The notes under the pieces: model-generated
Database searches by the model: none
What the model was told of the DNA's origin: nothing
Seen by the model: only the letters and a program-made list of their open reading frames with translations
Part shown: piece after piece, positions 29,626 to 53,009 of the stretch
How positions within the stretch are numbered: position 1 is the stretch's first letter
Layout of the letters: the number at the start of each line of letters is the position of its first letter
Assembly (NCBI GenBank): GCA_965153355.1
Contig: OZ231126.1
Location: 47,864,001-47,928,000 of the forward strand
Length of the DNA stretch: 64,000 nucleotides
From: Flaccisagitta enflata
Lineage: Eukaryota
Reading direction: 5' to 3'
Made by a program: the position numbers and the translations under genes

Positions 29626-32600
29626 ATGGCCACGGATGATCCCATTCCCACGGTAGAGTCGGAAGATCCCGAAGAGCGCATTACGGCACGACGGGGTCGC
29701 ATCTTCAAACGGATCGAAGCCGCTCGTCGAGAGGCGATGGGCGAAGATCCCAACGCCGCCAACGAAATCCGGGAAGTCGCCAGCAAAAGCAAATTGCAGA
29801 TCGAGGACAGTCGGAAACGGTTGGCCAAACTGGTCGCCGATGGAACCGAATTGGTGACGAATATTCAAGTCGCCGGCGACGCTCGTGAGGGTCAACGCCG
29901 AAATGAAGAGGAGGAGACGCGAAGGCAACGGAGAGAAAGGCTCGAAAACGAAGCCAAAACAAGTCTCGAGAAGTTTGAAGAAATCGTCAAAAAATGGGAT
30001 TTGAACGGGACCAAAGAAATCCCTCAAGAACTTCACGAGACGCTCAACGCACAACGCGATCAATGTGACGCAATGATACAAGTAAGTGAATAGCGAGCGG
30101 CTATCTTTTCCTTTTCATGTTTGTTGTTGTTGTTGTTATTGTTGTTATTGTTGTTATTGTTGTTGCTGTTGTTGTCGTTGTTATTTATGTTGATGTTGTT
30201 TTTTCTGTCGGTCATTTTCTGTCATCGCTTCTTGTTCCTCTATTTCTTGTGGTTGTTTCTGGTATTGTTTTTTTTTTTCTTTTTTCTTTCTCTTTTTCTT
30301 CATTTCACCTTTTTTTTCTTCTTCCTCTATTTTTTGCCGTTTCGTCTTCTTTTTCTCGTTTTTTTCTTTTTTGTTCCTCTCTTTTTCTTTTTCTTTATCT
30401 TCTTTTTCTTTTTCTTTTTCTTTTTCTTTTTCTTTTTCTTCTTTTTCCTTTTCTCTCCATATTCTTCTTTTTCCTTTTCCTATTGTTGTTTTTACTTATC
30501 GCTTTTTTTCTATTTCGTCATCGTCATCTCCTTCATCTTCTTGACTTCTACTTTTCTTTGTTCTTTGTTGTTTTTGTTGTTGTTGTTGTTGTTGTTGTTG
30601 TTGTTGTTGTTGTTGTTGTTGTTGTTGTTGTTGTTGTTTTTGTTGTTGTTGCTTTTGTTGTTGTTGTTTTTGTTGTTGTTGTTATTATTGTTTTTGTTGT
30701 TGTTGTTATTGTTGTTGTTGTTGTTGTTGTTGTTCGCGTTCGCGTTCTTGTTGCTTGTTGTTGTTGTTATTTCAAGAATTCCTTTCCTTTTTTTATTTTG
30801 CTCTCCTTATTCTCTTCTGTTGTTGTTTTTGTTGTTGTTGTTGTTGTCGTTGTCGTTGTTGTTGTTGTCATCGTCATAGAAGTCGTTATTAAATGTTGTT
30901 GTGTTTCTTATGCTTCTTTTCCTTTCACTGAGTTTTCCTTCTCAATTTCCTTTTCTTCTGTTTTAAAATGATGATTATCAATTAAAAATCACTCTCTGTT
31001 TCTCTCTTCCTAAACCAGGATAAGAATCAACTCATCAACGATTTTCAAATGGAATTGAAGAATCGCGACGATCAGTACGTACGCGATCTCAAGAAGCAAG
31101 CCGAGGATATCGATCTGATGATCGAACGAATGGACGAACAGATCAAGAATCTAATGAAGGCTTATCGAGAAGAGCTGGACGAGATCGAAAAGGCTTTCGT
31201 AGAGGAAAGAAATGAATTGTTGAACGATCAAAGAAGCGCCTGGGAGTCCACGATGGGAGATCGTCAGGAAAAGGTACTTTTACGCATCCGATTGTTGTTG
31301 TTGTTGTTGTTGTTGTTGTTGTTGTTGTTGTTGTTGTTGTTGTTGTTGTTGTTGTTGTTGTTGTTGTTGTTGTTGTTGTTGTTGCCTTTTGTTGCTGTAG
31401 TTCTTGTTGTAATTTTTGTTGTTGTCGTTGATGGTTGTCGAATTTTTGTTGTTGTTGTTGTTGTTGTTGTTGTTGTTGTTGTTGTTGTTGTTGTCGTTAA
31501 TGCCGTCTTTATCGTCATTGTTGTTGTTGTTGTTGTTGTTATATCGTTGTTGTTGTTGTTTTTGTTGTTGTTGTTGTTGTTGTTGTTGTTGTTGTTGTTG
31601 TTGTTGTAGTTGTTGTTGTTGTCGTTGTTATCATTGTCGTTGTCTACCGTTGTAGCCATTGTCGTTATTGTCGTTTTTATCGTCATTGTTGTTGTTGTTG
31701 TTGTTGTTGTTGTGTTGTTGTTGTTGTTTTATCGTTGTTGTCCGGCATCATAACTCTTATATTTCTTTAAATTACTTTCAACTCAATAGGAAAACGACTT
31801 CATGCAGTCGCGCGAAAGGCGGGTGGAAGATTACGAGAAGCAGATCCAACTTCTCCGCGTGCAAGACGCGGAAGAGTACAACAACGTCAAGCGCAAGCTG
31901 GAATCTGACGTGACAATCCTTGAGCAGCAGTTGCAGCAAATGAAGGCGACCTATCAGCTGAATCAGGAAAAGCTCGAGTACAATTTCCAAGTGTTGAAGA
32001 AACGCGACGAGGAGAACACCATCACCAAGTCCCAGCAAAAGCGGAAAATAACGAGACTGCAGGACAACCTCAACAACCTGAGGCTGAAAATCGGCCGACA
32101 AGAGAAAGGTTACCGCGACGAGAACACGCAGCTGACAGACGACTACAAGCGGATCACGCAGCAGTTCAAGGATTTGCAGAAAAAGTCGCGTCATTTTATG
32201 GCCGCCGACGTTGACAAATTCGGCCAAGTGTGGCGCATGAACGAGACCGAGTGCAAAGAGTTGCTCGGCGCCGTCATGGAGTGTGATCGAGTCATCACCG
32301 AGCATCAATTGGGGAAAAACTGGATCACGCCGGATTTGTCGTTCCTCGAAAACGAAGGCCCGATCGTGAGCGAGAAGAGCAAAAAACAATCCGTCTCCGC
32401 CAATCAAGTGTTGCAAGAAGTTCTGACGACCGATTCCGCGTCTGAAGGCGGAATCTCCAAAAGTCGCAAACCCCCCACGACGACCGCCGCCGACGAAACC
32501 ACCGAGACAGCGGCGGGGGTGGACGTCGACGACGGATTGTCGACGAGCAAATTATTCCGGAAAATCTCGACGGAGACTGTGAAGAAGATCCTCGAGCTTC

Positions 32601-33418
32601 TTTGCGACGAAGGCGGTTTCTTGGTGGAATCGCGCCTTCATCGCATCCTCGCGCCTTTGGATCGATACGAACAGTCGATGATCCGACTCGACGCCATTTT
32701 TTTGGCGCTCGGAATCGAGACGGAAGACGACATCTTCAAACTTACCCAATATTTCATGAGGATGAAAATGCCGGAAGAGGAGGGGGAGGCGGATGGCGAT
32801 GGAGGAGGAGGAGAGGCCGATCACCAGGGCAACGCCGGTGAAGCCGGTGATTCGGCGGAAGAACAAAATCATCAGCGTCGAAAGACGCCAGGAAGCGAAT
32901 CTTTACCAGAGACTTCGTCGGATTTTGGCGCCGATGAAGAGGATCCGCTGGAAGATGGAACCGGAAGTCCGGGAGGGGGAAGAGGAGACGAAGAAAGTCA
33001 AGAAATCATTCTTGATGAAGGCAACGCCGAGTTGGTGCATCCCAACGACGTCCTCAAGGCGATGAAGGCGTTCGTCGAATCGCATCCCAAGTTCCAACAA
33101 AAGGCCACTTCCAAGAGTCATTCGTTTCAAATCGCCGTTTTGGATGAAAGGGACGATTCCGAGGACACGAAATATTGGAAACTTTATTCCAACGCGCTCT
33201 CCGATGTCAAGAAGAAAACGTGGGACGCCATGAAAGAAGGAATGGAGAGATACAAACAAACGTTGACGCAAAGATCCAAATTGTTGACGGAAACTGACGC
33301 GCTGCGTCAACAAAACGCCGAACTGCGGCTTTTGCTGCAACAATACATTCACAGCAAAGTCAACGGCGAGTTGGAAATACCGCCGACCAGAATCTTGCAA
33401 TACGAGGGTGGGAAATGA
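29626..33418 (+). CDS. DRC1: Dynein regulatory complex subunit 1 (CCDC164). Exons 29626-30081, 31019-31273, 31790-33418 (~779 aa)
   Basis: PTVESEDPEERITARRGRI, DGTELVTNIQVAGDARE, ELKNRDDQYVRDLKKQAEDIDLMIERM, LEQQLQQMKATYQLNQEKLEYNFQVLKKRDEEN and C-terminal LRQQNAELRLLLQQYIHSKVNGELEIPPT. Confidence 0.96.
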
Positions 33419-52400: not shown

Positions 52401-53009
52401 AATCAGGTCCGTTGCGCGCAGCGATCCGGTCATTTTTGACCTTTTTTGACCCCTTCAATCAATTCTACGGTTAAAGAAACCTCTAGGGTGAGTCTCGATA
52501 TCCAGTGCTCCTACCCCATCTATGTGTACTCTCTGACTACTATGGCAGAGACAAAATTTGCATAATAGAAATATTGATTCCAATGCTAATTCAATACAAA
52601 CTTCAACCTCACCCTGACGAAGGTTCCTGCTATCTCAGAGGCCCAAAATTTTGCATGGAATGTTTTTTTACCAAGCCTCAACTGTGGTAAGATTGGTGAG
52701 AGCCATAGTCAAAGTTTGGGGCGCTTCACGGGACGTACTCATCATCTGCTCTGAGTGAAGCAACACTCAAAATACCGACTTGGTTGCTCATGGATAAAAT
52801 CAGTCTAAAATTCTACCTGCGGATCATGTTTCTTTGATCTTTACCTTCCAGAATGTCTTGAAAAGGAGGAAAGCATACAAATCATGAACGCAAAATTGCG
52901 GAGAATGGAGCACCTCATCTCTCTCAAAGAATCTCGAATCAAAGAAATGACGGAGAAAGTGGAACTTTTGGAACAGGCGGCAAAGAAAAATCCTTACTTC
53001 AAGGTTTGA
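46488..53009 (+). CDS. SPEF1: Sperm flagellar protein 1 (CH domain plus C-terminal coiled coil). Exons 46488-46811, 47403-47507, ~47644-47761, 52852-53009
   Basis: LYSWIDGVPLSRPKKSLTRDFSDGVMVAELLQHFLPKLVDMHNYSPANSSSQKMNNWGVL; last exon EKEESIQIMNAKLRRMEHLISLKESRIKEMT. Intron 1 needs a GC donor. Confidence 0.95.
47845..52737. mobile_element. 4.9-kb non-autonomous DNA transposon with ~300-bp TIRs and 8-bp TSD, carrying nested repeats
   Basis: CTCATCAT|TACGTCCC...GGGACGTA|CTCATCAT. Arms ~47845-48152 and ~52392-52737 are colinear inverted copies. Confidence 0.85.
50244..50352 (+). mobile_element. Minimal (~105-bp) DINE/HINE-like element
   Basis: TTTT-AGATGCGTCATCGCATCT hairpin, CTATAAGAG, (GTCC)n, subterminal inverted copy GACGCATC, 3' hairpin GCCCGCTCGGGC, TTGTTT. 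Confidence 0.7.

Follow-up and report, generated by a model that had tools for sequence, protein, structure and literature searches.

The 64-kb window analyzed here, the whole stretch of 64,000 nucleotides (nt) of contig OZ231126.1 from position 47,864,001 to 47,928,000, carries three consecutive plus-strand genes for parts of the axoneme: DRC1, RIB43A/RIBC, and SPEF1. Minus-strand genes flank them on both sides, and the spacers between them, from stop codon to ATG, are 502 nt and 355 nt long. As a tentative reading, with a prospect a little short of even, the sequence points to co-transcription and spliced-leader trans-splicing, either of the whole trio or at least of RIBC and SPEF1. The trio would be transcribed at least in part as one precursor RNA, most convincingly over the RIBC–SPEF1 junction, with initiation in the 1.48-kb stretch from which DRC1 and the neighboring minus-strand gene diverge. 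Individual mRNAs would arise from this precursor as the 3' end of each upstream gene is cleaved and polyadenylated and a spliced leader is joined to the following gene at an acceptor within the spacer; SPEF1 would use the acceptor ending at 46346, and RIBC one ending at 33888 or 33728. This operon reading is reasonable and agrees with both the likely lineage of the DNA and the acceptor-like site in the second spacer.

Gene models and identities

The exon models of the trio were built against near-identical transcript-derived proteins. Pfam assigns 12 of 14 exon translations to the expected families, whereas the two C-terminal exons of SPEF1 are without a Pfam match. The three genes together contain 13 introns, each of 136–7329 nt, of which 12 are of the GT-AG type and one is of the GC-AG type.

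DRC1 (29626..33418, plus strand) encodes 779 amino acids (aa) in three exons at 29626–30081, 31019–31273, and 31790–33418, with the stop codon TGA at 33416–33418; its model was guided by P0008/P0002. The protein features the architecture by which DRC1 is recognized: an N-terminal NYD-SP28 domain (PF14772; E values 1.9e-16 and 3e-08), a C-terminal NYD-SP28_assoc domain (PF14775; 1.4e-20), and a length in the range of ~700–800 aa, the matches named DRC1 having 716–803 aa. Its homologues carry the annotation dynein regulatory complex protein 1, the best named one at 55% identity.

RIBC (33921..46132, plus strand) encodes 379 aa in nine exons. Exons 1–5 lie at 33921–33986, 34144–34241, 34408–34539, 41869–41980, and 42487–42579, and exons 6–9 at 43029–43229, 44098–44262, 45008–45157, and 46010–46132, with TGA at 46130–46132. 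The RIB43A profile (PF05914) is matched across eight exons from position 16 to 372 of 372 and, hence, over nearly the whole protein, as expected for this family. A transcript-derived RIBC of 379 aa (P0246) is 97% identical over the query exon and differs at 6 of 379 residues when the full sequences are compared. Intron 3 (34540–41868, 7.3 kb) is filled with tandem arrays: units of 59 and 37 nt at ~35142–35496, a 36-nt unit repeated 7.9 times at 36919–37203, a 17-nt unit repeated 60 times at 38573–39607, and units of 42–64 nt at 40003–41130. The same intron holds a 304-nt hairpin at 36117–36736.

SPEF1 (46488..53009, plus strand) encodes 234 aa in four exons at 46488–46811, 47403–47507, 47644–47761, and 52852–53009, with TGA at 53007–53009 and an AATAAA at 53086, 3' of the stop codon. 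The N-terminal CH_2 domain (PF06294, 1.5e-34) and the length, ~230–250 aa being usual for SPEF1 (CLAMP), identify the protein, and its matches are named sperm flagellar protein 1. A SPEF1 of 234 aa from spliced transcript contigs (P0126) shares 232 of 234 residues with it. Intron 1 opens with the GC donor aag/GCAAGT (46811–46813), the sole non-GT donor among the 13 modeled introns. Intron 3 (47762–52851, 5.1 kb) contains an element of ~4.9 kb between inverted repeats at 47840–48161 and 52382–52742, which are 85–91% complementary; the element resembles a foldback or terminal-inverted-repeat transposon. A perfect palindromic X-box, the motif bound by RFX factors, lies in its left arm (GTTTCCATAGAAAC at 47981–47994).

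The three proteins occupy different sites of the axoneme: DRC1 belongs to the nexin–dynein regulatory complex, RIBC to the doublet inner proteins, and SPEF1 to the central apparatus. A preliminary description of this DNA had proposed the three identities and the absence of homology among them; both hold, the proteins falling into separate Pfam families. Its three consecutive plus-strand genes with short gaps were likewise borne out, with start and stop coordinates that are exact on the sequence, and all motifs it quoted were found at their positions.

Spacers, acceptor-like sites, and polyadenylation signals

Gap 1, between DRC1 and RIBC, extends over 33419–33920 (502 nt), and gap 2, between RIBC and SPEF1, over 46133–46487 (355 nt). 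Neither contains a conserved open reading frame (ORF) apart from those of the trio itself. A 47-aa ORF in gap 1 (33572–33712) was considered as a gene and rejected: a homology search gave no real homologue, the sole match being a spurious one to a 2202-aa repeat protein, aligned in 13 stretches. Upstream coding exons do not shorten the spacers, because relatives of all three proteins start at the same methionines; for RIBC, four of four relatives start with MYKLDLP. In addition, public spliced transcripts encode near-identical RIBC and SPEF1 proteins with the same start ATGs.

Potential acceptors were scored with a matrix derived from the 13 local introns. Gap 2 features a strong acceptor-like site, cgctttttttctaacag/G at 46330..46346 on the plus strand, which scores 10.4, lies 141 nt before the SPEF1 ATG, and is a candidate trans-splice acceptor. 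This site (ctttttttctaacag/G, ending at 46346) scores inside the range of the true local acceptors. A score of at least 10 is reached by 10 other plus-strand sites in the 64 kb, or 0.156 per kb elsewhere. No cis donor fits within gap 2, which, as read from the sequence, is too small for a cis intron. Two other AG candidates before the SPEF1 ATG had been put forward in the preliminary description; they are present where it placed them, but they lack strength on the local matrix, where both fall below zero: CCCTAAG ending at 46457 scores −0.5, and TTATAAG ending at 46477 scores below −1.6 and is outside the best four of the gap. In gap 1, TTTCTTGCAG lies at 33879–33888, 32 nt before the RIBC ATG, and a second acceptor-like site, scoring 6.1, ends at 33728.

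Both spacers contain poly(A) hexamers: AATAAA at 33745 in gap 1, and in gap 2 CATAAA at 46301 and AATAAA at 46422–46427, the latter 60 nt before the SPEF1 ATG. Operons are commonly judged by a short distance from the poly(A) site to the trans-splice acceptor, and here this distance is estimated from predicted signals instead of mapped mRNA ends. On this basis, gap 1 would have an intercistronic distance of ~120 nt, between AATAAA at 33745 and the AG at 33888. In gap 2 it would be <50 nt, counted either between CATAAA at 46301 and the AG at 46346 or between AATAAA at 46422 and the ATG.

Transcript contigs of SPEF1 relatives have lengths of 955–970 nt in four clusters. These lengths fit a 5' untranslated region (UTR) of ~150 nt, be it from an acceptor at 46346 or from an ordinary transcription start there, the two accounting for them equally well; if the 3' UTR is ~100 nt (AATAAA at 53086), they match the sites ending at 46457 and 46477 less well.

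Lineage

The best named DRC1 matches come from nemerteans (55%), followed by molluscs (53–54%); two further relatives are 70% and 87% identical. When 28 DRC1 proteins were placed in a quick maximum-likelihood tree, the window sequence grouped with these two, and their clade, on a long stem (0.98), fell outside a group of nemerteans, annelids, molluscs, and a bryozoan (Shimodaira–Hasegawa-like approximate likelihood ratio test, 93). The window is not from a tunicate, because none occurs among the 120 best DRC1 matches. Ten sequencing runs from seven studies, most of them labeled as marine or plankton metatranscriptomes, contain pieces of the sequence, each a small share (0.14 at best), and one further run is of raw poly(A) RNA; in such marine data, SPEF1 relatives form nine clusters that are 88–95% identical. 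Tree position and marine plankton RNA together suggest a chaetognath-like lineage.

Metagenome contigs were also searched for DNA of relatives. With SPEF1 as the query, 352 stretches of metagenome contigs matched and none was confirmed, and a RIBC alignment found 39 loci, none of them close (best identity 54%). A tblastn search of four SPEF1 and DRC1 proteins against these 39 loci, most of them short, gave zero matches and, hence, no linkage. Exact look-ups of fragments from the edges of RIBC exon 9 matched in none of nine cases and are uninformative.

Co-transcription or separate promoters

If the DNA belongs to a chaetognath, trans-splicing and operons are to be expected. According to PMC12460157, about half of the genes of chaetognaths receive leaders, 18% of genes lie in operons, and operonic genes dominate among germline markers. 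Candidate operons in Paraspadella gotoi were defined there by a spacing of <250 bp between neighbors, and leader evidence was obtained for 1,470 of 2,151. Throughout the window, genes stand in co-oriented runs in which spacers are very short, and introns are long and filled with repeats. Such runs are what an operon-rich genome would be expected to contain, and they count for an operon. The same applies to the promoter motifs: a scan of the window for X-boxes found none in either spacer and, hence, no sign of separate cilia-type promoters. The scan as a whole is uninformative, with 12 matches against 10.1 expected, which is the frequency of chance.

Several points weigh against the operon reading. 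The tight spacing belongs to the genome generally and not to the cilia trio: on the minus strand, stop-to-ATG spacers are ~317 nt between INTS2 and a CARD-caspase gene, 232 nt between the latter and a gene for an NAA50-like acetyltransferase, and ~815 nt between this gene and one for a BTB protein. Because unrelated neighbors in the window are 232–815 nt apart, shared function alone sets the trio apart. The preliminary description had taken the spacing as a sign of an operon; the gap sizes stand, but their special character does not, the unrelated neighbors being equally tight. Unless the UTR estimates given above are right, stop-to-ATG distances of 355–502 nt are also larger than is typical between cistrons. 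As for the acceptors, a site such as the one ending at 46346 has a chance expectation of ~5% in 355 nt, and a SPEF1 mRNA spliced there would carry an upstream ORF of 3 codons in its 5' UTR; TTTCTTGCAG before RIBC scores only 2.9, and intron decoys at about the level of the RIBC acceptor (score at least 0.9) number 8 per kb. The X-box is also missing from the region upstream of DRC1 in the window scan.

Traces of the leader itself do not add to the case. A 13-mer, CAATTTGTTTAAA, which is the 3' core of the published chaetognath leaders (Table 3 of PMC2481426), occurs exactly and once, at 33543–33555 on the plus strand, and GGAAGCTTATgAT at 29612–29600 on the minus strand, 14 nt upstream of the DRC1 ATG, matches the 5' start of these leaders at 12 of 13 positions. 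Both were rejected as evidence, and this too speaks against the operon: among 60 shuffled windows, 8 and 10, respectively, attain the observed alignment scores (27 and 28). The minus-strand leader candidate folds no better than its shuffles (z 0.52), and Rfam at gathering thresholds gives zero matches in the window.

The foremost alternative is that the three genes are initiated separately, from compact promoters inside or overlapping the 3' UTR of the gene upstream, and are co-expressed through shared cilia or spermatogenesis factors. This is quite possible, although its prospect is somewhat below even. The spacing that joins unrelated genes elsewhere in the window suits it, and gap 1, at 502 nt, carries weak acceptor-like sites only and has A/T-rich, TATA-like stretches. 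Against it stands the lack of an X-box or any other recognizable motif of cilia-gene promoters in either spacer. Moreover, if AATAAA at 46422 is the poly(A) signal of RIBC, ~40 nt are left for a SPEF1 promoter, and the strong acceptor at 46346 would be left without use. In a chaetognath, finally, most tight pairs would be expected to carry leaders, as judged by the candidate operons of P. gotoi cited above.

A stronger form of the operon reading is an operon dedicated to the axoneme. A single promoter ahead of DRC1 would give one precursor, resolved by spliced leaders, that supplies all three proteins together in spermatids or ciliated cells, and selection would hold the genes in place beside each other. 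This form is unlikely. In P. gotoi, broad expression is the rule among operonic genes, and genes under fine regulation are depleted (PMC12460157); this speaks against a cilium-specific operon and counts against the operon reading in general as well. A chance estimate also weighs against the operon reading. With random gene order and, as our own assumption, 1–3% of ~20,000 genes being ciliary, 0.02–0.5 all-cilia trios are expected per genome, so a single such trio from a very extensive scan gives no strong ground for inferring selection. A literature search retrieved no report of a DRC1–RIBC–SPEF1 cluster or of an animal cilia operon. The supplementary files available for PMC12460157, which do not comprise its operon tables, do not name RIBC, SPEF1, or DRC1.

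Cis-spliced read-through, in which the donor of an upstream RIBC exon joins the acceptor at 46346 and conjoined RIBC–SPEF1 transcripts occur beside the normal mRNAs without a leader, is very improbable: the strong acceptor-like site without a donor inside the gap would suit it, as would a SPEF1 contig of 1298 nt from this or a nearly identical organism (P0126) and a contig of a RIBC relative of 2247 nt (P0247), both longer than a single mRNA needs to be, yet these contigs may run into the neighboring gene or simply have longer UTRs, a longer 3' UTR being sufficient to explain their lengths, and all transcript-derived proteins found are separate full-length forms (SPEF1 of 234 aa, RIBC of 379 aa), with no fused protein among these matches, the SPEF1 search covering proteins of 190–2000 aa.

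Surrounding genes

Upstream of the trio, INTS2 (~9262–28146, minus strand; ATG at ~28146) diverges from DRC1. The region between the two ATGs (28147..29625, 1.48 kb) contains a (GAAG)n microsatellite, and a promoter shared by the trio, if it is co-transcribed, can lie only here. A copy of a dispersed repeat family of ~72 nt (D17) is found in the same region at 29299–29370, 255 nt upstream of the DRC1 ATG. Each member joins a (GACG/GACC)n tract to a short motif, hairpin-like and ending in CTAAAAA, and further copies lie at 21800, 22384, 22392, 27669, 27689, 58100, and 61086.

INTS2 and the genes for the CARD-caspase, the NAA50-like acetyltransferase, and the BTB protein are unrelated, yet all four are read in the same direction, in a run on the minus strand (5050–28146). 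This run is a second operon-like arrangement, divergent from the cilia trio. The acetyltransferase, which we take to be NAA50-like from its sequence, has only a weak GNAT match in Pfam (E 0.028), and its ATG (6833) follows 12 nt after a strong acceptor-like site with a score of 10 or more. A second perfect palindromic X-box, GTTACCATGGCAAC at 12044–12057, is situated within an INTS2 intron, distant from the cilia genes.

Downstream, a single long ORF on the minus strand (53787–55100) encodes a multi-pass membrane protein with a cysteine-rich tail. It is convergent with SPEF1, ends ~780 nt past the SPEF1 stop codon, and belongs to no Pfam family.

Comparison with known operons

Animal operons are generally viewed as sets of broadly expressed, loosely related genes, and sperm genes are depleted from the operons of Caenorhabditis elegans. 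The trio resembles the published chaetognath operons (PMC2481426, PMC12460157) in its same-strand neighbors, its very short spacers beside otherwise normal or large introns, and an AG shortly before the downstream ATG; in addition, it likely belongs to the same lineage. Two differences stand out: the addition of a leader and the polycistronic precursor, demonstrated there, are predicted here, and most of the examples described so far consist of housekeeping genes (ribosomal, proteasome, ubiquitin), in contrast to the axoneme-specific trio. In the first chaetognath operon described, RPS14–PCNA of Spadella cephaloptera, 3 nt separate the poly(A) site from the acceptor (PMC2481426); the spacers of the trio, measured from stop codon to ATG, are longer.

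The SL2 operons of C. elegans have intercistronic distances of ~100 nt (PMC7986045), to which gap 1 would come close with ~120 nt if AATAAA at 33745 is used. They differ in having a specialized downstream leader, none being known from chaetognaths (PMC12460157). A single leader type for monocistronic and operonic genes, with operons defined by short distance, is the likeness to Ciona and Oikopleura; the intercistronic distances there, 1–60 bp (PMC7986045), are a point of difference from the trio.

If the three genes have separate promoters, they would form an ordinary tight cluster in a genome with compact intergenic regions, and their shared function would probably be a coincidence. If the operon reading is true, the trio would be a chaetognath-type operon with unusually coherent, tissue-specific content and a clear counter-example to the view of animal operons as sets of broadly expressed, loosely related genes; in the dedicated form, it would be a rare animal operon built around a tissue-specific structural module, not housekeeping genes. 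A co-transcribed trio would also offer a simple system for asking whether operons enforce a matched supply of parts for one organelle.

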